Shown here: in pieces, positions 1,566 to 47,265 of the stretch
Layout of the letters: each line of letters begins with the position of its first letter
How positions within the stretch are numbered: the first letter of the stretch is position 1
DNA from: an uncultured Bacteriovoracaceae bacterium
GTDB taxonomy: Bacteria; Desulfobacterota; Desulfomonilia; UBA1062
DNA: 64,000 nt
NCBI GenBank assembly: GCA_964513375.1
Contig: CAZEMO010000003.1
Coordinates: 92,730-156,729, forward strand
Direction: 5' to 3'
Notes under the pieces: model-generated
Seen by the model: the letters and a program-made list of their open reading frames with translations, nothing else
What the model was told of the DNA's origin: nothing
Database searches by the model: none
Position numbers and translations under genes: made by a program

Positions 1566-3212
1566 TCAAATGCTTGCTGCGCTGTATGTCCTGTATCCCC
1601 CGTTTAAATTGTAGACTTTTTGGTATCCCTTCTGCATGAGAATCCTGCATGCTACATAAGCCCTCAGGCCGATCCCGCAGTATATAATTATCCTTTTATC
1701 CTTCGGTAATTCGTCAAGACGCCCCCTTAACTCATCCAGAGGTATGTTCACCGCATCATCAAGAAAATCCGCTGCAAACTCTATTGGCGTTCTGACATCA
1801 AGCAGTATTACGTCATCTGCGCCTTCAGGAATTTCGTTCCAATGAATGATTTTCACCTTGCCGCTCAGAATATTCTCGGCAACCATTCCCGCAACATTCA
1901 CCGGATCTTTCGCGGATGAAAACGGAGGGGCATACGCATGTTCGATAACCGAGAGATCATATATTGTCCCCTTATTCTTTATTGCGGACGCAATTAGGTC
2001 TATCCTCTTGTCCACTCCTTCTTCACCTGTGACCTGTGCGCCGTATATTGTACCGCCATCAGGTGAAAACAGCAGTTTGATAGAAAGCATGAAGGCCCCG
2101 GGATAGTAACCGGCATGAGAAAAACCATGCGTTATTGAAGAAATGTATTCGATGTTAGAAGCCTTGAGCAGGCGCTCCGTCACACCTGCGCATGCGCAGT
2201 TCAGGCCGAAAACCTTGACTATGGCGGTTCCGATCGATCCATCATATCTGCTGATATCTCCAAGCGCAATATTATCCGCAACTATCCTTGCCTCTTTGTT
2301 TGCCGGCCCTGCCAGAGGAATGGCTATGGGTTTGCCCAGAATCGGATGGATCATCTCGACCGCGTCTCCGAGCGCATATATGTGAGCGTCGGATGTGCGC
2401 ATGTATTCATCCACAATTATTCCTCCGCCAGGACCCATCTCGAGACCAGCCTCTTTTGCAAGGGAAGAGTCCGGCCTTACTCCTATTGAAAGGATTATCA
2501 TGTCCGCCTTCAGGTTCCTCCCGCCTTTGAGTTGCACTGACAGGCCGTTTTCATCTCGTCTCACAGAAACGACAGTTTCGCTCAATATGAGATTTACACC
2601 CTTCTGAATCATGTGCACTTTAGCGAGAGATGCCATGTCATAATCAAACGGGGGCAATACATGATCGAGCATCTCGACCACGCTTACTTTGATTCCAAGC
2701 TGCATAAGATTTTCCGCCGCTTCTAGACCTATGAAACCCGCGCCTATGACAACGGCATTCTTCGGCTTTCTTTCTTCTATGAATGCCTTTATCCTATCGG
2801 TGTCTCCGACTGAGCGGATCGTAAAAACCGCATCGTCGTCGAAGCCGCTGATGTCAGGGCGGAAAGGATATGCACCGGGTGACAGCACTATTTTGTCGTA
2901 TCTTTCAGTATATTCTCTCCCGGTTTTAAGATATCTAGCATAAACGGTTTTGGAGGTCCTATCGATAAAGGTCACCTCATTCTTTACGCGTACATCCAGG
3001 TTATATCTTGCCCTTAGCCCTTCGGCGCTTTGAACGAAAAGGCTCTCTCTGGCCGGTATCACGCCGCCTACATAATACGGCAGTCCGCAGTTCGCATAGG
3101 AGACATAATCATCCCTCTCAAAGATAATAATTTCTGCATTTTCGTCGAGCCGCCTGAGTCTGGCAGCAGTTGAGGCCCCTCCGGCCACTCCTCCTATGAT
3201 GAGATACCTCAT
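1566..3212 (-). CDS. CoA-disulfide reductase / NADH oxidase family flavoprotein with a C-terminal rhodanese domain (CoADR-RHD)
   Basis: N-terminal 'IIGGVAGGASTAARLRR' FAD fold and the redox Cys in 'SYANCGLPYYVGG'. The C-terminal rhodanese segment is 'DVRTPIEFAADF...IIIYCGIGLRAYVACRIL' with the active-site Cys loop. Confidence 0.9.
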   Translation of the reverse strand: MRYLIIGGVAGGASTAARLRRLDENAEIIIFERDDYVSYANCGLPYYVGGVIPARESLFVQSAEGLRARYNLDVRVKNEVTFIDRTSKTVYARYLKTGREYTERYDKIVLSPGAYPFRPDISGFDDDAVFTIRSVGDTDRIKAFIEERKPKNAVVIGAGFIGLEAAENLMQLGIKVSVVEMLDHVLPPFDYDMASLAKVHMIQKGVNLILSETVVSVRRDENGLSVQLKGGRNLKADMIILSIGVRPDSSLAKEAGLEMGPGGGIIVDEYMRTSDAHIYALGDAVEMIHPILGKPIAIPLAGPANKEARIVADNIALGDISRYDGSIGTAIVKVFGLNCACAGVTERLLKASNIEYISSITHGFSHAGYYPGAFMLSIKLLFSPDGGTIYGAQVTGEEGVDKRIDLIASAIKNKGTIYDLSVIEHAYAPPFSSAKDPVNVAGMVAENILSGKVKIIHWNEIPEGADDVILLDVRTPIEFAADFLDDAVNIPLDELRGRLDELPKDKRIIIYCGIGLRAYVACRILMQKGYQKVYNLNGGYRTYSAASI

Positions 3213-3235
3213 GGTACACCGCTCCTTCTATCATC

Positions 3236-3817
3236 CTATTTTGCAGTCCCGCCTCCGCAGCATCCGACAGGCTTACCTCCGCCGCATGATACCTGAGATT
3301 TTGGATTATTTGAAGAGCCCGATGCAATGATTCTGAGCGCCATGGCTGCAGCCCTGCCTACGACATTCGAACAGTGGCCCGACATATCCTGTTTCATCGC
3401 CATGTTGGCGTCATCAGGAATTCTCAGGTTGAAGCTCCTGCCCATCAGCTTTTTTTGAATATCCGCACAGCGGCATGTCCCGTATTCAGATATGAAGTGT
3501 TCGTGAAGCTCTTTCGCAAGGTCGTAAGACTTGATTGCAGCCAGCGGGTCCTTGAATTCCAAGTATCCCCGGCCGAAGATAAGCCCTATTACCATGGCCC
3601 CTCCGGCAAGCGCGCCGCAGCTCCCGTCGCTGCTTAGTCCTATGCCGTCCGCCAGGCCGCTGGCCGCCTTGAATAGATCTTCGCTGTCAATATCAAGGAC
3701 CTCAAGAAGGGCTGCAACCGTGCTCTGGGCGCATCCTGTACAGGTTATCTCATATTCCTTTGCAATATCTCTGATCTTTTCAATATCCGCTTCTTTTATC
3801 AATTTAAGGTTTTTCAT
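3236..3817 (-). CDS. C_GCAxxG_C_C family putative redox-active protein with a Cys/Gly-rich C-terminal tail
   Basis: Motifs 'TCTGCAQSTVAALLEVL', 'SCGALAGGAMVIGLIFG', 'GTCRCADI' and 'GHCSNVVGRAAAMALRII' match the family layout. The tail is 'CGGGKPVGCCGGG'. Confidence 0.8.
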   Translation of the reverse strand: MKNLKLIKEADIEKIRDIAKEYEITCTGCAQSTVAALLEVLDIDSEDLFKAASGLADGIGLSSDGSCGALAGGAMVIGLIFGRGYLEFKDPLAAIKSYDLAKELHEHFISEYGTCRCADIQKKLMGRSFNLRIPDDANMAMKQDMSGHCSNVVGRAAAMALRIIASGSSNNPKSQVSCGGGKPVGCCGGGTAK

Positions 3818-36925: not shown

Positions 36926-39379
36926 ATGAAACATTCATTATTAATCGGCAGCAAGTTCATCATCTTTTCGTTTCTGGCGATTTTGATTACTTTTTCAGGC
37001 TGCAAACTTAAGCCAGTTCCGGCAGGCACTTTTGTCATGGGCAGCCCGGAAAACGAGTTCGGTCACAGGGCAAATGAAGTTCAGCATGAAGTGACCCTGA
37101 CATATGATATCGAAGTCGCTTCGACAGAGGTCACCTGGAGCGATTTCAAAAGCCTCATGGGATTTGATCCGAGCTATTTCTCAAAAACCCTGCCAAATCC
37201 GGGAAAGCCCGTTGAAAACGTCAGCTGGTATGATGCCCTTGCATATGCAAACGCAAAGTCCATTAAAAAGGGGCTTGCCCCTGCCTACATATTAAATAAC
37301 GCCGTATGCGATGATGGCACAGCGGTTACCGACTGTATGGAATGCAAGACTCACGGGGGAATTAAATCCGCTGATGTCAGTCTGAACGGCATTGCCAGCG
37401 TTTACCAGGCAGAGGGATACCGACTTCCGACAGAGGCCGAATGGGAATATGCGGCACGTGCCGGGTCGACCTCACCTGTTTACAACGGCGAGATTTCTGT
37501 TCCAGGATGCGAAGGCGACCCCATACTTGATAAAATCGCCTGGTACTGTGCTAACAGCTCAAGTTTCACACATAACGTCGGCCTCAAATCACCAAATAAA
37601 TGGGGCCTTTATGACATGAGCGGGAACATCGAGGAGTGGTGCTGGGATAATTACGGAGACTATGCAGGCGATATAATCAATCCCACTGGCCCGGATACCG
37701 GACATTTCAAGGTTGTACGCGGCGGCAGCATCCGTTTCGACGGTTCCTCCAGGCTGCGTTCGGCATACCGTGAAGGATTCACTCCAGGCTACAGATGCCG
37801 TTTTATTGGCTTCCGCCTGGTAAAAACCAAGAACCCTTCCGCCAGCGCCGGAATCAATGTTGTATTAAACCCCGCCACACCACCTTCTTATGAATTAACA
37901 GCGAGCATACCTGATTACCCGAATGCACTGCCATTCTCATTCACGAGGGTAGATGAAGGCACACCTCTTACAGATGCAGAGATAAAGGCCTTTACGAAAA
38001 AGATCACAGGCCTATGGAAAGACACTCACTATTTTGAATGGATGTATCTTACAAGCAACGGGATGGACGAGTCCAACCCTTACGGCATGCCATGGTATAA
38101 GGCGCACCTGCAGGATTTTTCAGCCGAGAAGAACGGAGACACCGTCACATTCCACCACGGCGGAGGATCGGATAACCTCTGGATCCGTTCGGGTAAGATG
38201 CTCAACAATGTGATTGCAGGGTACCTGGCAAGCAGCGATCCTCTCATGGGAAAGATCGCCGAAAGCTATTGCAGGGGTATCGAAGCATTCTTCAAGGGCG
38301 AAGAATACAGCGACAATGACCCTGAAAGAACCATCATGCCCCGCTGCATATTCACGCAAAACCATGAATACACAGTACTCGGCAGAAAGGTTAAGGTTGA
38401 TTATGACCCGGTCAAGACGCACGGCGAGAAATATGACTGGAATGCACACACCATACCTAACCACATCAATCCGTATTACGGCGATATCTATATAAGGAAT
38501 ATGAGGAGCAAGGACGATGTCCCGCATATCTACAGAATGGTCCCGATGATAATGCGGCTTGCAAAAGAGGCCCCTGATGCAAACATAAGAAACGCTGCAA
38601 CAAGGGCGGTTGCCTACCTGCAGGCGTTCGCCAAAGACATAGTTGATTCCGGCTATTACATCAGAGCGAAGGACAAGGAAGGGAACACTAAAATAATGTT
38701 TGAAGAGGAAACTTCCTGGCTGGTAAAAGACCTGATGAGTTTCGTGAATTTCGAAATGCTGGTGCCTAACGCTGAATGCAACGCCAAGATGACATCCGCC
38801 ATTCTGGGCTATCAGGATCCGCTCTGCAACGACTGCGGAAGCGGAACAATAAACCTTTACGATATGGTCGCCGGTCAAATCCATTATTACAACATGGCGA
38901 TCGTAGTATATTTCCATCAGGCCGCTATTTCGAATGCGCTTACAAATAATAAGGACTACATAGCACTGGAACTGATCCAGGGAATGTCGGACAGGATGGA
39001 TGCCATGATGGCCGGAAAAGGCAAACCGACAAAAGAACCATGCCCTGACTGGGAGCCTGATCTCGCAACCCACCTTCTGGTTGCCGCATCAAACGGGCTT
39101 CCTCTGAAGTCATCTGAAGCAAGACTGATCGCAAACGAGTACAGCAAGGCTGTGGATCATTATATAACATGGCCCAACTGGAACCTCTGGTCGCCGACAG
39201 TTCCGAACGGCATTGTATCCTACATACCGGGGAACAGCCCGACAACCGATACCCGTGTCGTGGGAGCGGACGAGCTCGCATACCTCCTGGAGTACTGCTA
39301 CTCTCCGTTAAAAAACTCGACCGGAGCAAAGCTCTGTGACTGCAGCATAGTGCTTGACCCCTCACGCTGGGGTGAGTAA
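36926..39379 (+). CDS. Lipoprotein with an N-terminal FGE-sulfatase (DUF323) domain fused to a C-terminal domain of about 530 aa with unknown function
   Basis: Lipobox 'TFSGC'. 'PAGTFVMGSP', 'VSWYDALAYANAKS', 'LPTEAEWEYAARAG', 'WGLYDMSGNIEEWC' and 'RGGS'. No catalytic Cys pair. The remainder (aa 290-817) matches nothing I recognise. Confidence 0.8.
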   Translation: MKHSLLIGSKFIIFSFLAILITFSGCKLKPVPAGTFVMGSPENEFGHRANEVQHEVTLTYDIEVASTEVTWSDFKSLMGFDPSYFSKTLPNPGKPVENVSWYDALAYANAKSIKKGLAPAYILNNAVCDDGTAVTDCMECKTHGGIKSADVSLNGIASVYQAEGYRLPTEAEWEYAARAGSTSPVYNGEISVPGCEGDPILDKIAWYCANSSSFTHNVGLKSPNKWGLYDMSGNIEEWCWDNYGDYAGDIINPTGPDTGHFKVVRGGSIRFDGSSRLRSAYREGFTPGYRCRFIGFRLVKTKNPSASAGINVVLNPATPPSYELTASIPDYPNALPFSFTRVDEGTPLTDAEIKAFTKKITGLWKDTHYFEWMYLTSNGMDESNPYGMPWYKAHLQDFSAEKNGDTVTFHHGGGSDNLWIRSGKMLNNVIAGYLASSDPLMGKIAESYCRGIEAFFKGEEYSDNDPERTIMPRCIFTQNHEYTVLGRKVKVDYDPVKTHGEKYDWNAHTIPNHINPYYGDIYIRNMRSKDDVPHIYRMVPMIMRLAKEAPDANIRNAATRAVAYLQAFAKDIVDSGYYIRAKDKEGNTKIMFEEETSWLVKDLMSFVNFEMLVPNAECNAKMTSAILGYQDPLCNDCGSGTINLYDMVAGQIHYYNMAIVVYFHQAAISNALTNNKDYIALELIQGMSDRMDAMMAGKGKPTKEPCPDWEPDLATHLLVAASNGLPLKSSEARLIANEYSKAVDHYITWPNWNLWSPTVPNGIVSYIPGNSPTTDTRVVGADELAYLLEYCYSPLKNSTGAKLCDCSIVLDPSRWGE

Positions 39380-39384
39380 ATAAA

Positions 39385-39420
39385 AAAATCCCCTTCCGCT
39401 CCCGGAAGGGGATTTTTGTT
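39385..39420 (+). terminator. Rho-independent terminator
   Basis: AAATCCCCTTCCG-CTCC-CGGAAGGGGATTT followed by TTGTT, 6 nt after the stop codon. Confidence 0.7.
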
Positions 39421-39493
39421 ATTAGAGTGTTGACATTTCGGATTTGAAGTTGATTATCAGATAAACAGTCAAATTAAAATCCAGGAGCATAAA

Positions 39494-40258
39494 GTGAATA
39501 TAAAAGATATTCTTCCTGTACCTGACATGCGTGAGGCAAAAAGAATACTCTGCATCCAGCCGCACCCCGATGATATGGACATAAGTGCAGGGGCAACCCT
39601 TTCCATGCTTTCAGACCTGGGTATTGAGATAATTTATCTGACGGTTACCGACGACTCGGCAGGATTCAAGGATGCAGGCGCAGATGACCTTGTTCGCAGA
39701 CAGGACCAGCGCAAGGAAGAGCAGATGGCAGCCGGCAAAATTATTGGCGTAAAAGACTATTACTGGCTCAATTACACCGATGCGGGCAACTGGTCCCAAT
39801 ATGACGCCAGGAACCAGATCATCAAATATATCCGCATGCTGAGGCCCGATTTTATTTTCACAGTCGACCCCTGGCTTATTTATGAAGCGCATATGGACCA
39901 TATCAAGACGGGGCATGCCGCAAGCGAGGCGCTGCTGCTTTACAACTTCCCGTTTATCGTCACCGAGCCTGATATTGACAAGAAATTTGAACCCTATGAC
40001 ATCGCAGGAATCGCCTTTTCATTCACTGCAAGGCCGAATGTCGTCATTGATGTAGGCAAATACAGAGAGCGGAAATTTACGGCTATTGCCGAGCACAGAA
40101 GCCAGTTCACTGAAGAATCGCTGGGCATGCTCAAGATGTATGACGAGATGAGATGCAAAAGCCTGGCACAAGGCAAAGGCTTCGAGTCCGGCGAAGGGTT
40201 CAAGGTTCTTCATGCACAGTACATGCTTCACTGCTTCCCCGAAGCGATAGATTATTGA
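39494..40258 (+). CDS. PIG-L/LmbE family N-acetylglucosaminyl deacetylase
   Basis: 'ILCIQPHPDDMDISAGATL' (HPDD) and the downstream 'HMDHIKTGHAA' zinc ligands. Confidence 0.85.
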   Translation: MNIKDILPVPDMREAKRILCIQPHPDDMDISAGATLSMLSDLGIEIIYLTVTDDSAGFKDAGADDLVRRQDQRKEEQMAAGKIIGVKDYYWLNYTDAGNWSQYDARNQIIKYIRMLRPDFIFTVDPWLIYEAHMDHIKTGHAASEALLLYNFPFIVTEPDIDKKFEPYDIAGIAFSFTARPNVVIDVGKYRERKFTAIAEHRSQFTEESLGMLKMYDEMRCKSLAQGKGFESGEGFKVLHAQYMLHCFPEAIDY

Positions 40259-40338
40259 TGACAGTGATAAATTAAGAGCATTTTTAATAAATTTTACAGA
40301 ACTTTTCTTCACTAATATGAATCCGGAACTGAAGAAAG

Positions 40339-41754
40339 ATGGATGAAACAATGTCCTTTTTGAAAGCAGGTGTTGACAGAATAATCATAACGCCTCCCCG
40401 CGGTATTTATCTGATCGGATATTCAGGAAGAAAGGGCGGTGCGGAAGAAGTACATTCCGACCTTACGTCAACAGCACTCATCCTCGATGATGGAAATGAA
40501 AAGTTGGTCCTTATTTCACTCGATCTGCTCGCACTCAACCGGGAGACGGTTGACGCCATAAAGAGAGGTATAACTGCAAGACTCGGAACTGCTGCAAATA
40601 GCATAAGGCTTTTCTGCTCACATACTCATTCGGGACCCATTGCCTGGCCGCCATATAAACCCGCAATCAAAGACAGGATGAAATATTACCTTTACAGGCT
40701 AATGCTTTCGGCAGAGGAACCGCTCTCGACAAAAGGCATAATGACCAACTATTTTTACTGTGACTGGCTGGTGAAAAGCATTATTGCGTCTGCAACTCGC
40801 GCTGAGGCAAACCTTATGGATGCCGAAATAAACCATGCCCGGACAGAATGCTCTATCGGCATCAACAGAAGGGAAAGGCTTCCTGACGGCACAACCGTCA
40901 TAGGCTGGAATAAGGAAGGCACTGTTGACAGGAGTGTTGATATCTTAAGGGTTTCAAGCGGCGCGAAACCTGTTGTCACGATTGTCAATTACGCCTGCCA
41001 TGCCTGCGTGCTGGGCGAAGAAAGCAACGTGATCTCCGCTGACTGGCCGGGAGCGATGAGGGCTCGGGTTGAAAAGGAGCTGGGCGGCCTCTGCATGTTC
41101 ATTCAGGGGGCATGCGCCAACATAAACCCCGATGTAGAGTGGTCGGACGACAACAGACCTGATGTAGAGCGGCTTGGCGGTATAGTCGCTGAATCTGTTA
41201 TTGAGGCTGAAGGAAGGCTGACTAAAATAAACTCTCTACCCTTGTCAGGTGTTACGGGCGAGACCAATGCCTATTTGGATGTTCCCGCAGGCATGGAAAG
41301 TTTGAGTGTTAAAAGGATTTACAGGCCCATGCTTAAAAAAGGGGCTGCCATGCTCATGGAAGGTGCGGTGATACCCGAATTTATGATAGACCCGTTTCTT
41401 GATGTCCGCTATCCCTGGAAGACTATATTGAACCGTGATGATAAGGGCTATTTCACCCCAATACGAACCGGCGTGATTCGCATAGGCGATATTGCAATTG
41501 CCTCGGTAGCGATGGAGACATTTACGGAAACAGGCATTGAGACGAAGAAGGCATCAACCGCACCGATAACCCTTTTCACGGGATATACCGACGGTATGAC
41601 CGGCTACCTTCCGACTGCTGAGGAAATCTCCTTTGGAGGCTACGAGGTCGATGTCGTGGCTTACATTTACAAGCTACCTGGAAGATTCAGGCTTGATACG
41701 GAAAAAAATGTAAGAAAACTTCTTTTGGATCAAATTAATATGATCTTTGCGTAA
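40339..41754 (+). CDS. Neutral/alkaline ceramidase-like hydrolase (N-terminal ceramidase_alk domain)
   Basis: 'VDRIIITPPRGIYLIGYSGR' and 'GNEKLVLISLDLLAL' resemble the neutral ceramidase N-terminus. 'CSHTHSGP' is also present. Confidence 0.6.
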   Translation: MDETMSFLKAGVDRIIITPPRGIYLIGYSGRKGGAEEVHSDLTSTALILDDGNEKLVLISLDLLALNRETVDAIKRGITARLGTAANSIRLFCSHTHSGPIAWPPYKPAIKDRMKYYLYRLMLSAEEPLSTKGIMTNYFYCDWLVKSIIASATRAEANLMDAEINHARTECSIGINRRERLPDGTTVIGWNKEGTVDRSVDILRVSSGAKPVVTIVNYACHACVLGEESNVISADWPGAMRARVEKELGGLCMFIQGACANINPDVEWSDDNRPDVERLGGIVAESVIEAEGRLTKINSLPLSGVTGETNAYLDVPAGMESLSVKRIYRPMLKKGAAMLMEGAVIPEFMIDPFLDVRYPWKTILNRDDKGYFTPIRTGVIRIGDIAIASVAMETFTETGIETKKASTAPITLFTGYTDGMTGYLPTAEEISFGGYEVDVVAYIYKLPGRFRLDTEKNVRKLLLDQINMIFA

Positions 41755-41773
41755 GTTAAATAAGGGAGGGCAA

Positions 41774-43645
41774 ATGGAAAGGACGTCATTATTATTTGTA
41801 TTTGTGTTTGTTACCATCATAACAGGTTGTTCATACTTTAATAAGAACATGCCTGATCATGACATCATGGTATCTCATAAAAAGTGGAGATACTTTTTAA
41901 TGTTTAGAAAAATTATCGTAATCATTACTTTGATACTTTTCCTTTCAATTTCTGCGAATGCAGAGTCATTGCAACAGTTGCCTCAAATCTCGAAAGAAGA
42001 TTTTTATCAGCTTATCAAGAAAGCAGATACTAGTGATGCCAATGCGCAGTTTTTGCTTGGCATGCGATATTTGCATGGATGGAGCACAAACAAGGACGAG
42101 ATGGAGGGTGTCAAATGGCTGACAAAAGCTGCTGACCAAGACCATGCTTATGCGGAATTCTTTATTGGAGTCATTTACTGTTCCGGAGGTAGCGTTATTA
42201 AAGCCGATAACAATAAATGTATTGATTTGATTACTAAAGCCGCTAAACAAAATATCAAAGAAGCACAAACATTTCTCGGCCAATTTTACTGTGATGGTGA
42301 AATAGTCACAAAGGATTATGTAAAAGCTATGGAATGGTTTAAAAAAGCAGCAGATCAGGGATATGAAGATGCTCAGTATAGAATTGGCAAACTATATGAA
42401 GAAGGAAAAGGCGTTTCTAAAAATGATCAAGAAGCTGTTAATTGGTACGCAAAAGCTGCAACACAAGGATACGGCAAAGCCCAGATGGTATTAGGTTATA
42501 TATATTCTAATGGCGATGAGTCTGTAAGAGATTATAAAAATTCGTTTGAATGGTATGTCAAGGCTGCTCAGTCAGGTATCCAAGAAGCTTTTTTCAATGT
42601 AGGTTTGATGTATGAACAAGGAAGGGGAACGGGAAAAGACTACGCAAAAGCAATAGAGTGGTACAGGAAAGCAGCTGAATACAATGATGCCAAAGCTTTA
42701 TATGCAATCGGCAATATGCATGAGAAAGGTTTGGGAGTTAGAAAAGACTGTAATGAGGCTTTGAAATGGTATCAAAAATTAACTGATAACGGATCTGTTC
42801 AAATTATGTTTTATATTGGAATGATGTACTGGAATGGCTCTTGTGTTCAGAAAAATGATGTGCAGGCTTTAAAATGGTTTTTAAAAGCTGCAAAAGAAGG
42901 ACAACCTGATGCTCAGGCCATGGTCGGGATTATGTATTATGAGGGAGAAGGTGCATCACAAAATTACTCTGAAAGCATGAGATGGCTTTTAAAGGCATCA
43001 GAACAGGGTAATCCGGAATCACCCTATTATTTATATCAAATGTATAAGAATGGAAAGGGAGTTCAGATTAATAATAATGAAGCGGCTAAGTGTTTAAAGC
43101 TATCAGCAGAAAGGGGATATTCTGAAGCGCAAAGAAACCTTGGAACAAGTTATTATTTTGGAAAGGTCACAGAAAAAAATAAAGATGAAGCTGTCAAATG
43201 GTATAAAAAAGCCGCAGAACAAGGTGATGATAAAGCGCAGCAAAGACTTGGAAAGATATATCTTCTAGATGAAAACTTTAAAGAAGCAGTTACATGGCTT
43301 GAGAAGTCAGCTAATCAAAATAATGCAGAAGCCCAAAATGATTTGGGTTATATGTATGATAAGGGACTAGGTGTTACTCAGGATTATACAAAAGCTTTTG
43401 AACTTTATAAGCTCTCATCTGAACGTGGATATATGTATGCCCAACATAATCTTGCTATATTGTTTGAGCAGGGACATGGAACAAAACTTGACATTGTACA
43501 GGCATATAAATGGTTTTCTTTATCTGCTGAACAGGGCGATGAACAAGCAAAAGGTAAAGTTAGTGAGCTTGATAAGCTTTTGCCAAAAGAACAGATTAAC
43601 GAGGCAAAACGCTTGATTGCAGAATATAAGTCTGAAAAGAATTAA
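41774..43645 (+). CDS. Sel1-repeat (SLR/TPR-like) lipoprotein
   Basis: The start was set at 'MERTSLL', which follows a strong AAGGGAGGG RBS, with lipobox 'IITGC'. There are about 14 repeats of 'A..W..KAA.QG...AQ..LG.MY..G.GV..D...A'. GC is markedly lower (about 35%) than in neighbouring genes. Confidence 0.85.
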   Translation: MERTSLLFVFVFVTIITGCSYFNKNMPDHDIMVSHKKWRYFLMFRKIIVIITLILFLSISANAESLQQLPQISKEDFYQLIKKADTSDANAQFLLGMRYLHGWSTNKDEMEGVKWLTKAADQDHAYAEFFIGVIYCSGGSVIKADNNKCIDLITKAAKQNIKEAQTFLGQFYCDGEIVTKDYVKAMEWFKKAADQGYEDAQYRIGKLYEEGKGVSKNDQEAVNWYAKAATQGYGKAQMVLGYIYSNGDESVRDYKNSFEWYVKAAQSGIQEAFFNVGLMYEQGRGTGKDYAKAIEWYRKAAEYNDAKALYAIGNMHEKGLGVRKDCNEALKWYQKLTDNGSVQIMFYIGMMYWNGSCVQKNDVQALKWFLKAAKEGQPDAQAMVGIMYYEGEGASQNYSESMRWLLKASEQGNPESPYYLYQMYKNGKGVQINNNEAAKCLKLSAERGYSEAQRNLGTSYYFGKVTEKNKDEAVKWYKKAAEQGDDKAQQRLGKIYLLDENFKEAVTWLEKSANQNNAEAQNDLGYMYDKGLGVTQDYTKAFELYKLSSERGYMYAQHNLAILFEQGHGTKLDIVQAYKWFSLSAEQGDEQAKGKVSELDKLLPKEQINEAKRLIAEYKSEKN

Positions 43646-43750
43646 ATAAATTTCATAAGATGCAAAGTATGATTTCTAAATCATGGGGGGATGCGATCTG
43701 TCGTATCTGTCTAGTTATAAAAAGAGTAATAAGCAGGAGGTAATTTTTAT

Positions 43751-44740
43751 ATGGATTTCAGGAAAGTTCCCAGCAAGGAATCGCTTCTGGACAAATCGAA
43801 GAAGCATCTGTTCATGTTTTCCCACCACGACGATGAAATCGTATGCGCAGGGATAATACAGAGGCTGCAGCCGGGTGCTGCACTCATGTGGCTGACGAAT
43901 TCGGACGGCCTTTATTTCAAGGAGAACGTCACACCCGAAGAGTATGGAAAAAAACGTGTCGCCGAAGGATGGAACGTTTCGCGCGAACTGGGTTTCAGGG
44001 ATGAGGACGTCACCAACGGGCTTTATTCCGAAGTGGACAATTACAGGCTCTTTGTGGACTCGATCAAGAGCGAGGCGCAATTCGAAGAAGGCATTTCTTT
44101 CTGGAGAAAACAGGGCCGCGACATTTACGCCAAGATAAAGAAACACGACCCGGACATAATCTGGACATATGCATTCCAGGGCGGCATGCCTGAGCATGAT
44201 CTTACCCATGTCCTGACAGCTGCTTGTATAGACAGCTACGAGAAGGAGTTCGGAAAGAAAATCCAGATGGTGGAGATCCCGGCATACGAACTTACCGTTC
44301 TCATCTCCTTCCGCTTCAATCCCTGGTATAAGGGAACCAAGTATTACATCGACATGACGCGTGAAGAGCTCTTAAAGAAGCTTGCTGCCGCCTTTCACTA
44401 CCCTTCGCAGGTTGAGCTTATAGAGAAATTCAGGAAAGTCATCGACAATCTCGGCAAGGCCTCTGGCCTCATCGGAAAGCCTTTTAATTTCGAATCATAC
44501 TGCGGCAGGGAATATTTTGCGCCTGTCTGCGAACCGCGTGACTATTCGAGACCCCCCTACCGTATAGACTTCTTCAACTACATGTTCGATGACTATCTGG
44601 GTGAGCCTGTCAAATTTATCGGCATGATGGACAGAATTTTTCATGAACTCTCAAAACCCGTGTTTCATATCAGGCAGGAAAACGCCGTTGATGACGAGTC
44701 GCATTCCTGCCACCAGAAAGGCTGCGCATGCTGTGAATAG
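43751..44740 (+). CDS. PIG-L/LmbE-like deacetylase family protein with a Cys-rich C-terminus
   Basis: 'LFMFSHHDDEIVCAGII'. The tail is 'SHSCHQKGCACCE'. Confidence 0.7.
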   Translation: MDFRKVPSKESLLDKSKKHLFMFSHHDDEIVCAGIIQRLQPGAALMWLTNSDGLYFKENVTPEEYGKKRVAEGWNVSRELGFRDEDVTNGLYSEVDNYRLFVDSIKSEAQFEEGISFWRKQGRDIYAKIKKHDPDIIWTYAFQGGMPEHDLTHVLTAACIDSYEKEFGKKIQMVEIPAYELTVLISFRFNPWYKGTKYYIDMTREELLKKLAAAFHYPSQVELIEKFRKVIDNLGKASGLIGKPFNFESYCGREYFAPVCEPRDYSRPPYRIDFFNYMFDDYLGEPVKFIGMMDRIFHELSKPVFHIRQENAVDDESHSCHQKGCACCE

Positions 44741-44822: not shown

Positions 44823-45848
44823 ATGAATCTCAATGATTCCGGATACACAAAGTTTTCTCTAGTTAATGAAATGATGGAAGCGCCGTCCATAATCAAGAGT
44901 TTTGATCCCAAGATTTCAAGACCTGTCGCTTATTCCGTGATTCACAAGCACAGGCTTTTATTTACTGGCGAGGGCTCATCGCGTATATTCCCGGCAAAGA
45001 ATGCCATCTATCAGGCAAACAGAAGGGGACTTGCATTCAACATGATTACTGACGGCGGCAGGCAGTCCATGGAATATAACCTCAAAGACCATGTGATCGT
45101 TGCAGCCAGCAATTCCGGCAAGACAAAGGAAGTTGTTTCACTTCTGAGAAAATTGAATGCTGAAGGGTGCGATAACATCTTTGGCATTACTGCGCACGAC
45201 AAGACCCCTATAATGGAGTTATCAAAGAAGGGTTTTCTGCTCACATGCGGCGAAGAAAATGCAGTCGCTGCAACAAAATCGATTATCGAACAGGCGCTGT
45301 TCATGCTTTCTATTGTAGAGAATCTTTCTCCTACGGGCATGAATGAGTCCCTGCCTTCACTTGCCGATGCTTTCGAACAGGTGCTAACGATGAAGATCGA
45401 TCCCGGAATTATAAAAACCCTCTCAGACGCACCTCAGATATATTTTGCCGGCCGCAACAACGGAGTGGCCGAGGAACTTACGCTCAAAACAAATGAAATA
45501 ACGCGCAAAAAGGCGGATTTCCTTGAAGGCACCTATGCAGTGCACGGCATAGAAGAGGTCATGAATCCCCGCGAGGTCCTGGTTCTTATCGAACCATTCG
45601 CAGAGGAGATTCAGAAATTCAGCGACGTGCTGGTAAAGGGCGTGGGCATGAAGATCATCGCTATCGACCACAAGGAGACCCCCTTCCCCACAATAATCAT
45701 TCCCGGGCTTGATCCCTATGACGAGTTCCTGCAGATAGCATCCGGCTGGAACCTGCTCGTCGAAACCGGCATAGCAGAAGGCATCAACCTGGACAAGCCT
45801 CTCAGAGCCAGAAAAGTTGGGAACATAGACGAAGGGCCGGCCCGTTGA
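44823..45848 (+). CDS. Tandem SIS-domain sugar-phosphate isomerase/deaminase (AgaS / GlmS C-terminal-like)
   Basis: 'VIVAASNSGKTKEVV' is the SIS phosphate-binding loop. A second SIS half lies in the C-terminal region. Confidence 0.8.
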   Translation: MNLNDSGYTKFSLVNEMMEAPSIIKSFDPKISRPVAYSVIHKHRLLFTGEGSSRIFPAKNAIYQANRRGLAFNMITDGGRQSMEYNLKDHVIVAASNSGKTKEVVSLLRKLNAEGCDNIFGITAHDKTPIMELSKKGFLLTCGEENAVAATKSIIEQALFMLSIVENLSPTGMNESLPSLADAFEQVLTMKIDPGIIKTLSDAPQIYFAGRNNGVAEELTLKTNEITRKKADFLEGTYAVHGIEEVMNPREVLVLIEPFAEEIQKFSDVLVKGVGMKIIAIDHKETPFPTIIIPGLDPYDEFLQIASGWNLLVETGIAEGINLDKPLRARKVGNIDEGPAR

Positions 45849-45909: not shown

Positions 45910-47265
45910 ATGATCAAGGCAATCATATTTGATTTTGACGGGACCATCATGGACACCGAAAGCACTTCGTTCAACATATGGCGTGAGATCTATTCCACCC
46001 ACGGACACGAACTGACTCTGGAAAAATGGGCTGAATGCGTAGGCATACCGGAAAGCAGCTTCGATCCTTATGAAGACCTGATGGAACTTACCGGCCTACC
46101 GCTTGACCGCATGGAAATGGCCCTTACCTACGTGACAAGGGAGTCTGAATTGAATAAGGGATTGCCTTTGCTTCCGGGCATTGAAAAGATAATCCTTGCT
46201 GCAAAAAGTATCGGCCTTAAGCTCGGAATTGCCTCAAGTGCGGACCATAACTGGATCGAGGAACACCTTGGAAGAAAAAGACTTCTGGGCAGGTTTGACG
46301 CAATCATATGCAGGGAGGATACTGAAAGACACAAACCTTTTCCCGACCCTTATCTCAAGGCAATTGAGGTTCTCGGCTGCAAACCCAGTGAAGCTATTGC
46401 CATAGAAGATTCTCCGAACGGCATAAAAGCAGCCAAGGCTGCCGGTCTATTCACAGTTGCAGTCCCAAATCAGGTAACCCATTCCTTTGTAGGCGATGAG
46501 GCTGACCTTAAACTAAAATCGCTGGCTGATATTACACTCAAAGAACTACTGGCAAGGGGGGTTCGTATGATAAACAATTTAATCAATCAGGTGATTACCG
46601 ATAGCAGTAAATATCTTGCCGGTTTTGCAGACATGACCGGCCTCATTAATGAAAAATACTCCGGATACAATTATGCAATATCTCTTGCCCGACATCTTGA
46701 CAGTGAAATCATCGATTCCATAGATAAAGGCCCGAACAGAGCTTATTTCGATCATTATAATGAAGTTAACCGGGAATTGACCGAAGCAGTCCAGAAGATA
46801 TCAGCAAAGCTTACCGGAGACGGGTTTGACAACATCCCGATAAATCCAACCGTTACAGATGATATTCTCACCGATAATTATTATAAGACCTTAAGAATGG
46901 CATTTTCTCACAAGATGGCTGCCACCAGGGCTGGAATCGGCTGGATAGGAAAAACCGACCTGCTTGTCACAAAGGAATATGGCCCGAGGGTAAGGCTGGC
47001 AAGCATTCTTTTGAAAGAGAGAATCACTGAGCCGAATGCGCCGCTTGAAGAAAGTTTGTGTGGGGATTGCGAGGTCTGCGTTGTCAACTGTCCTGCGCAG
47101 GCCGCAACCGGAGAATTATGGAATATACACACCGACAGGGATAAATTCTATAATCCCTTCAAGTGCATGAAAAAGTGCAGAGAACTGTCATTAAACAATC
47201 TGAACGAACATATCAGCCTCTGTGGCATATGCGTGTCTCTTTGCCCGAAGGGACGACAAACATAA
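45910..47265 (+). CDS. Fusion protein: N-terminal HAD-superfamily hydrolase (beta-PGM-like) plus a C-terminal QueG-like 4Fe-4S domain
   Basis: 'IIFDFDGTIMDTE' is HAD motif I, with 'IEDSPNGIKAAKAAG' as motif III. The C-terminal 'AGIGWIGKTDLLVTKEYGPRVRLASILL', 'CGDCEVCVVNCP' and 'CGICVSLCP' resemble the epoxyqueuosine reductase core. Confidence 0.7.
   Translation: MIKAIIFDFDGTIMDTESTSFNIWREIYSTHGHELTLEKWAECVGIPESSFDPYEDLMELTGLPLDRMEMALTYVTRESELNKGLPLLPGIEKIILAAKSIGLKLGIASSADHNWIEEHLGRKRLLGRFDAIICREDTERHKPFPDPYLKAIEVLGCKPSEAIAIEDSPNGIKAAKAAGLFTVAVPNQVTHSFVGDEADLKLKSLADITLKELLARGVRMINNLINQVITDSSKYLAGFADMTGLINEKYSGYNYAISLARHLDSEIIDSIDKGPNRAYFDHYNEVNRELTEAVQKISAKLTGDGFDNIPINPTVTDDILTDNYYKTLRMAFSHKMAATRAGIGWIGKTDLLVTKEYGPRVRLASILLKERITEPNAPLEESLCGDCEVCVVNCPAQAATGELWNIHTDRDKFYNPFKCMKKCRELSLNNLNEHISLCGICVSLCPKGRQT

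Follow-up and report, generated by a model that had tools for sequence, protein, structure and literature searches.

The 64,000-nucleotide stretch of contig CAZEMO010000003.1 analyzed here (the window), from an uncultured bacterium of the GTDB lineage Desulfobacterota, Desulfomonilia, UBA1062, contains an open reading frame (ORF) that joins a HAD-type phosphatase module to a module related to the epoxyqueuosine reductase QueG and to reductive dehalogenases (RdhA). The frame is uninterrupted and encodes 451 amino acids (aa) followed by a stop codon (Table 1). A preliminary description had reported HAD and QueG-like domains in this single ORF, and matches to Pfam and NCBIfam models bear out both assignments at the superfamily level; the motifs quoted there (DxDGT, SHKMAATRAGIGWIGKTD, GPRVRL, and two cysteine sets) are all in their places, GPRVRL lying at aa 358 to 363. 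The halves of 215 and 235 aa given in that description do exist as two parts, but the boundary between the N-terminal module and the C-terminal module (C-module) lies at aa 219/220 (nucleotides [nt] 46566/46567), not at 215/216. The modules meet without a linker, in the stretch ...LLARGVRMINNL..., and the protein ends at T451, six residues past the last cysteine ligand, C445. Ratios of nonsynonymous to synonymous substitution rates (dN/dS) of 0.05 to 0.085 across both halves indicate purifying selection, and both halves are intact. We consider it likely that this ORF is a real but lineage-restricted gene fusion that arose by accident.

Table 1. Features of the fused ORF and of the conserved gene cluster upstream of it (window coordinates)
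Feature	Position	Strand	Evidence or remarks
Fused ORF (HAD module plus class-III cobalamin/Fe-S-like module)	45910..47265	+	ORF; domain matches; same sequence in two Logan assemblies of short reads
HAD-IA sugar-phosphate-phosphatase-type module, aa 1-219	45910..46566	+	HAD_2; counterpart of the stand-alone 219- to 220-aa HAD gene of relatives
Shine-Dalgarno-like AAGGGGGG, with G6 run at 46556-46561	46554..46561	+	5 nt upstream of the internal ATG
In-frame ATG (M220), used as start codon by the stand-alone C-module gene of relatives	46567..46569	+	Junctions of relatives; starts of homologues
Minimal class-III cobalamin/[4Fe-4S]2 oxidoreductase-like module, aa 220-451 (232 aa)	46567..47262	+	
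SHKMAATRAGIGWIGKTD motif, aa 333-350	46906..46959	+	AG(I/L)G loop of the superfamily, preceded by the family-invariant His-Lys
First Fe-S motif, CxxCxxCxxxCP (C384-x2-C387-x2-C390-x3-C394-P)	47059..47094	+	Fer4-type match; conserved without exception in 34 members of the family
Second Fe-S ligand set, remote C419, then CxxCxxxCP (C438-x2-C441-x3-C445-P)	47164..47247	+	Pattern as in QueG/RdhA alignments
SIS-domain gene, weakly GlmS-isomerase/NagB-II-like	44823..45848	+	Conserved HAD neighbour in all related contigs
Rest of conserved cluster: FGE-sulfatase-domain protein, PIG-L deacetylase, ceramidase-like protein, second PIG-L	36926..44740	+	Synteny in L007, L009, and L010

The N-terminal module is a HAD hydrolase of subfamily IA, variant 3: Pfam HAD_2 matches aa 5 to 185 (E = 1.9e-36, 126 bits) and Hydrolase matches as well (E = 7.6e-29), while the NCBIfam model HAD-SF-IA-v3 (TIGR01509) reaches 67.7 bits (cut-off 29.4). 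All four HAD motifs are present, namely DFDGT (aa 8 to 12), the S/T motif GIASSA (aa 106 to 111), K142, and EDSPNG (aa 166 to 171), and dN/dS for the module is 0.05 to 0.08. Its nearest solved relatives are the carbohydrate-phosphate phosphatase TM_1254 (4e-20), the 2-deoxyglucose-6-phosphate phosphatase of E. coli (8e-19), and beta-phosphoglucomutase (beta-PGM). The NCBIfam models of the beta-PGM/YqaB subfamily and of related sugar phosphatases give matches below their cut-offs, including beta-PGM (TIGR01990; 79.9 bits, cut-off 189.4) and HxpB (NF008087; 91.1 bits, cut-off 191). Judged from these scores, the module is related to beta-PGM and HxpB yet is neither of the two named enzymes.

The nature of the C-module is less apparent from profile searches. 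Pfam shows just Fer4-type domains in this half of the protein (aa 380 to 448), Fer4_16 (aa 384 to 447, E = 1e-6) reaching 29.8 bits, just below its cut-off of 30, as would be seen if the C-terminal part were merely a plain 2x[4Fe-4S] ferredoxin domain unrelated to QueG or RdhA. The predicted structure speaks against that reading. In an AlphaFold model of the C-module (predicted local distance difference test score, 95.1; predicted template modelling score, 0.91), aa 220 to about 335 form a compact cobalamin-binding-type alpha/beta domain, giving the arrangement of the superfamily, a nitroreductase-like corrinoid-binding domain followed by a 2x[4Fe-4S] ferredoxin domain. A Foldseek search of the PDB with this model returned only QueG, PceA, and NpRdhA (E = 6e-8 to 4e-6), followed by MMACHC; in structure the C-module lies as near to reductive dehalogenases as to QueG. 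The plain-ferredoxin reading was rejected on these grounds of fold and has next to no chance of being correct; the preliminary description had listed a plain ferredoxin domain unrelated to QueG among the findings that would refute it, and the predicted fold is that of QueG and RdhA instead. The same description had found the DUF1730-type region missing, which holds at the sequence level, but the predicted fold has a compact corrinoid-type domain in its place. As modelled, the C-module is a complete minimal core of the class-III cobalamin/[4Fe-4S]2 enzymes. Corrinoid binding is predicted from the fold alone, and the substrate is probably a small molecule.

Proteins of the same family are widespread as stand-alone products of about 230 to 250 aa that carry the database label "epoxyqueuosine reductase," and their taxonomic range is broad (Spirochaetota, Bacteroidales, Zixibacteria, Thermoleophilia, Clostridia, and some archaea). 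An alignment of 34 of these sequences has 34 invariant positions, all of which are present in the C-module; among them are the eight cysteines, which make up two [4Fe-4S] ligand sets of the QueG type, an H-K pair ahead of the RAG(I/L)GWIGKT loop (H115 and K116 in C-module numbering), GPR-R, and two tyrosines (Y60 and Y64).

Could the C-module be a true minimal QueG, so that the fusion would tie tRNA queuosine maturation to a phosphatase? QueG is its best NCBIfam match and its best match among PDB sequences, and several sources label the stand-alone homologues epoxyqueuosine reductase. The match to the QueG model TIGR00276 (aa 334 to 449; 48.5 bits for the fusion and 50.6 for the C-module alone, E = 6e-13) spans only model positions 133 to 245 of 337, and its score is a quarter of the family cut-off of 200. 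RdhA (TIGR02486) scores 33.8 bits with the fusion and 35.8 with the C-module (E = 3e-8), far below the subfamily cut-off of 160, and a profile of the short family matches QueG (3.9e-11) and RdhA (2.3e-10) nearly equally. QueG has a C-terminal HEAT-like tRNA-binding domain, Leu257 to Leu385 in the B. subtilis protein (PMC5175355), and a strictly conserved D-Y-H motif plus a catalytic Asp, D100-Y101-H102 and D130 in S. thermophilus (PMC4646009). In the predicted structure of the C-module no helical bundle follows the ferredoxin domain, so the HEAT-like domain is absent; DYH is not conserved in the consensus of the short family, and alignments to QueG stop at AG(I/L)G, short of the D-Y-H/Asp region. 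The Tyr/Arg of RdhA likewise lie beyond the reach of the sequence and profile alignments, which end at the AG(I/L)G motif. Nor, judged from the annotated genes, is the setting that of a respiratory RdhA with an adjacent rdhB anchor gene or of a catabolic one with a fused reductase module: a cytoplasmic HAD domain stands in front, the gene is flanked by a SIS gene and an EamA transporter gene, and neither an RdhB-type gene nor a reductase module is annotated. With no HEAT-like domain and with scores under both cut-offs, the C-module is judged to be neither QueG nor a typical RdhA, and a minimal QueG is very improbable.

How the two modules came to share a frame is indicated by the junction, which reads ...CTG GCA AGG GGG GTT CGT ATG ATA AAC.... 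With one G fewer, the HAD frame would read GGG TTC GTA TGA, and its stop codon would overlap the ATG as ATGA. M220 is also roughly where stand-alone homologues of the C-terminal half begin, and HAD homologues that stand alone terminate no more than a few residues away; one separate protein of 230 aa, P0122, shares the 90%-identity cluster of the fusion. Related contigs were reached through P0122, through the conserved upstream SIS gene, and by a metagenome scan. Contig L006 (82% DNA identity, about 12 kb of synteny) encodes a 219-aa HAD protein and a 230-aa C-module with a 4-bp overlap, and the more distant L009 (HAD about 76% identical in aa) encodes proteins of 220 and 231 aa with the same overlap. 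L117 (HAD 89% identical in aa) and L072 (C-module 74% identical in aa) have the same split arrangement. At all four split loci, which share the synteny and have 74 to 89% aa identity, the HAD stop codon overlaps the ATG as ATGA, and the stretch from GGCAA/AGAAA to the ATG is 1 nt shorter than in the window, which places the extra nucleotide somewhere in the approximately 12 nt before the ATG.

A sister lineage (contigs L007, L008, and L010 to L012; HAD about 87 to 88% identical in aa) carries the cluster and the HAD gene with a methyltransferase gene between SIS and HAD and has no C-module gene. L007 belongs to a metagenome-assembled genome (MAG) of the Desulfomonilia, and at 90% identity its SIS protein clusters with that of the window, which makes Desulfomonilia the probable affiliation of the window's source as well. 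The separate HAD genes of L006, L007, L009, and L117 encode proteins 76 to 89% identical in aa to the HAD module. By parsimony, since the more distant pair, L009 and L072, are both split, the comparison of these sequences indicates that the split state is ancestral and the fusion derived in the lineage of the window. In L006 (4436 to 6708) the thiolase gene is broken up among three ORFs and the EamA gene is cut short, which suggests indel errors or pseudogenes in that assembly and caution with its gene calls; its HAD/C-module junction has no homopolymer, however, and the three other contigs agree with the split seen there.

The fusion hangs on a single base next to or in a G6 homopolymer, the source is a metagenome-assembled contig, and all four relatives are split, as would also be found if a sequencing or assembly artefact had added a G to a genome that in fact has two overlapping genes and no 451-aa ORF. 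The same junction, however, was assembled by a different assembler from two short-read runs: the exact 451-aa product is called on Logan assemblies of runs SRR10083294 and SRR10083292, which match the window without a mismatch, junction included, over 12,133 and 1,763 bases of DNA, respectively. Short-read consensus sequences do not as a rule go wrong at homopolymers of six bases. The extra base is probably a real mutation and not a sequencing error, and we regard an artefact as highly unlikely. The preliminary description had named two genes separated by a sequencing frameshift as the finding that would undo the fusion; the relatives do have two genes, but the fusing frameshift recurs in both run-level assemblies. 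When JGI metagenomes were scanned for exact copies of the junction carrying G5, G6, or G7, nothing matched, which is uninformative on polymorphism. We also considered whether the G6 run might serve programmed frameshifting or phase variation; no evidence for either was found, and we consider the run short for such a role.

The fused architecture is rare. An exhaustive phmmer search of 1.84 billion cluster representatives yielded 550 proteins at E of 1e-30 or below, and none among the best 150 of these 550 matches contained both halves, in accord with the rarity proposed at the outset; the top matches were a 220-aa HAD protein (80% identity) and C-module homologues of about 240 aa. A word-indexed protein search gave no match covering more than 60% of the query, and the close relatives of the query were not listed by it: it omitted the 90% cluster of the query itself and the 80 to 89% identical HAD relatives found by other means, and alone it would mislead. 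The significance that the preliminary description implied for the fusion does not follow from its rarity. The fused state is confined to one strain lineage and depends on one extra nucleotide, and the genes are separate in 4 of 4 related contigs.

The observations support a model in which the ancestor had two adjacent, translationally coupled genes with an ATGA stop/start overlap, the first encoding a HAD-IA sugar-phosphate phosphatase and the second a small stand-alone class-III cobalamin/[4Fe-4S]2 protein. One nucleotide gained in the approximately 12 nt before the ATG, most plausibly by slippage in what is now the G6 run, would have shifted the HAD frame into the downstream frame and removed the HAD stop codon, leaving two complete proteins head to tail. 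The modules would keep separate activities: the N-terminal one may dephosphorylate a sugar or amino-sugar phosphate from the upstream cluster, and the C-module may bind a base-off corrinoid and two [4Fe-4S] clusters and carry out a two-electron reduction of a small molecule, not of tRNA. The retained Shine-Dalgarno-like motif and ATG may permit separate synthesis of the C-module from M220, and the fusion presumably brings no new chemistry.

Some points weigh against an accidental, lineage-restricted fusion. The two Logan loci (L001 and L002) are 100% identical to the window and represent the same strain, possibly the read sets of the MAG itself, and their support for the extra base is therefore at the level of runs and assemblers, not of populations. 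The extra nucleotide cannot be placed exactly, the last HAD codons differing by several substitutions among the relatives, and the nearest relative with separate genes has a DNA identity of only about 86%, which does not fix the age of the fusion. Finally, coupling in two sub-lineages together with the fusion here could reflect a functional partnership beyond adjacency.

The main rival view is that the ORF is an adaptive bifunctional enzyme, whose modules act on successive intermediates of the cluster's pathway and were brought together by selection for channelling or stoichiometry (a Rosetta-stone link). The HAD and C-module genes do adjoin with an ATGA overlap in L006, L009, L072, and L117, purifying selection on both halves is strong, and homologues of both halves are elsewhere fused to GNAT acetyltransferases. 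However, GNAT is a promiscuous fusion partner, and the pairing of the two genes is limited to the clade. Among the 36 genome-derived loci outside it that hold a family member matched over nearly its whole length (L003 to L005 and L017 to L049), none has a HAD homologue within about 6 kb; 35 metagenome loci offer 700 nt or more of upstream sequence, and among these a HAD homologue occurs just in L072 and L117, which belong to the clade, leaving 0 of 33. The sister lineage, moreover, retains the cluster and the HAD gene without the reductase-like gene, and the fusion itself occurs in one strain, has no linker, and still contains the Shine-Dalgarno sequence and ATG of the downstream gene. On this balance selection for a bifunctional enzyme appears unlikely.

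A related proposal is that the short family constitutes a third, functionally distinct branch of class-III cobalamin proteins, minimal corrinoid/[4Fe-4S]2 reductases of a small molecule, with an invariant His-Lys where QueG and RdhA differ, and that its coupling and fusion in the probably Desulfomonilia clade, at the end of an amino-sugar/lipid-type cluster, mark a true metabolic partnership with the phosphatase. This combination is rather unlikely; if true, the HAD pairing would be the first handle on the substrate of the family. Across about 40 loci the family has no conserved neighbours, just generic ABC ATPases and clade-specific metal transporters, which offer no hint of function, and we found no publication on it or on any HAD-QueG fusion.

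Several members of the short family and of the HAD family occur in other architectures. P0148 (422 aa) and P0238 (383 aa) are short-family members with a C-terminal GNAT acetyltransferase, P0028 has an N-terminal DUF1284-like region, and fusions to GNAT, NUDIX, or MazG domains are found in many of the nearest HAD homologues; a HAD/GNAT/reductase association would be conceivable. P0031 agrees with P0003 as far as about residue 190 but then continues with an unrelated tail, making it a frameshifted database member, and L030 (6001 to 6685) and L050 (6001 to 6566) match the short family in two pieces, with a 2-nt overlap in L030 and a gap in L050; frameshift-generated chimeric ORFs seem to be common around this family. 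At the weaker genome loci, five of six ORFs resemble cytosolic RdhA-like proteins, and L061 has a HEAT-like C terminus.

The fused gene lies at the end of a same-strand set of genes that is kept, together with the HAD gene following it, in the relatives. The preliminary description had called this cluster amino-sugar-like, which is loosely apt given the PIG-L deacetylases, the first of them BshB-like, and the GlmS/NagB-II-like SIS protein upstream. The conserved cluster is modular: the methyltransferase between SIS and HAD in the sister lineage has 258 aa (e.g., L007, 7121 to 7897), and in L009 an MFS transporter (1624 to 3486) is inserted after the first PIG-L gene. In the window the cluster is interrupted by a Sel1-repeat gene (41747 to 43645; 632 aa, 11 Sel1 repeats) with a GC content of 36%, against 46% for the window, and a strong positive GC skew. 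The gene is absent from L006, L007, and L010, in which PIG-L comes straight after the ceramidase-like gene; it is probably a lineage-specific insertion. The second PIG-L-family protein (43751 to 44740, 329 aa) has a Cys-rich tail, ...HSCHQKGCACCE, that is unusual for LmbE/PIG-L deacetylases, and it has no NCBIfam match.

As a single-base accident in one lineage, the fusion is no evidence for a new class of bifunctional enzymes. It provides instead a clean natural case of ATGA-coupled genes turning into a fusion protein, with the split and fused states found in close relatives. More deserving of attention is the orphan minimal B12/Fe-S family itself, which is mislabelled by annotation pipelines and removed by length filters from RdhA surveys; a large survey of RdhA-like genes retained only proteins of more than 300 aa (PMC12219181). 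A corrected annotation of the short family would prevent the false inference of queuosine metabolism.

Among known systems, the C-module stands nearest to three groups of cobalamin proteins and differs from each. QueG proteins (TIGR00276; PDB 5D6S and 5D08) have about 340 to 390 aa, whereas the C-module has 232 and lacks the HEAT-like domain, and their N-terminal DUF1730 region is undetectable in it at the sequence level. Compared with RdhA proteins (PceA, 4UQU; the reductive dehalogenase complex 8Q4H; catabolic NpRdhA, 4RAS/6ZXU), it is about half the size. The cobalamin-processing MMACHC/CblC proteins are without a ferredoxin domain and have no detectable sequence similarity to the C-module. 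The HAD module resembles the HAD-IA sugar-phosphate phosphatases (TM_1254, E. coli YniC/HxpB, and beta-PGM/YqaB; 1e-17 to 4e-20) in possessing all four motifs but falls below every equivalog cut-off, and the module, normally a stand-alone protein of about 220 aa, is fused here. Fusion by loss of a stop codon at the overlapping ATGA junction of coupled genes is a known evolutionary mechanism, and beside it the present fusion shows nothing unusual: the ATGA of the relatives, the single additional nucleotide, the direct joining of the modules, and the retained Shine-Dalgarno sequence and ATG all correspond to that mechanism.
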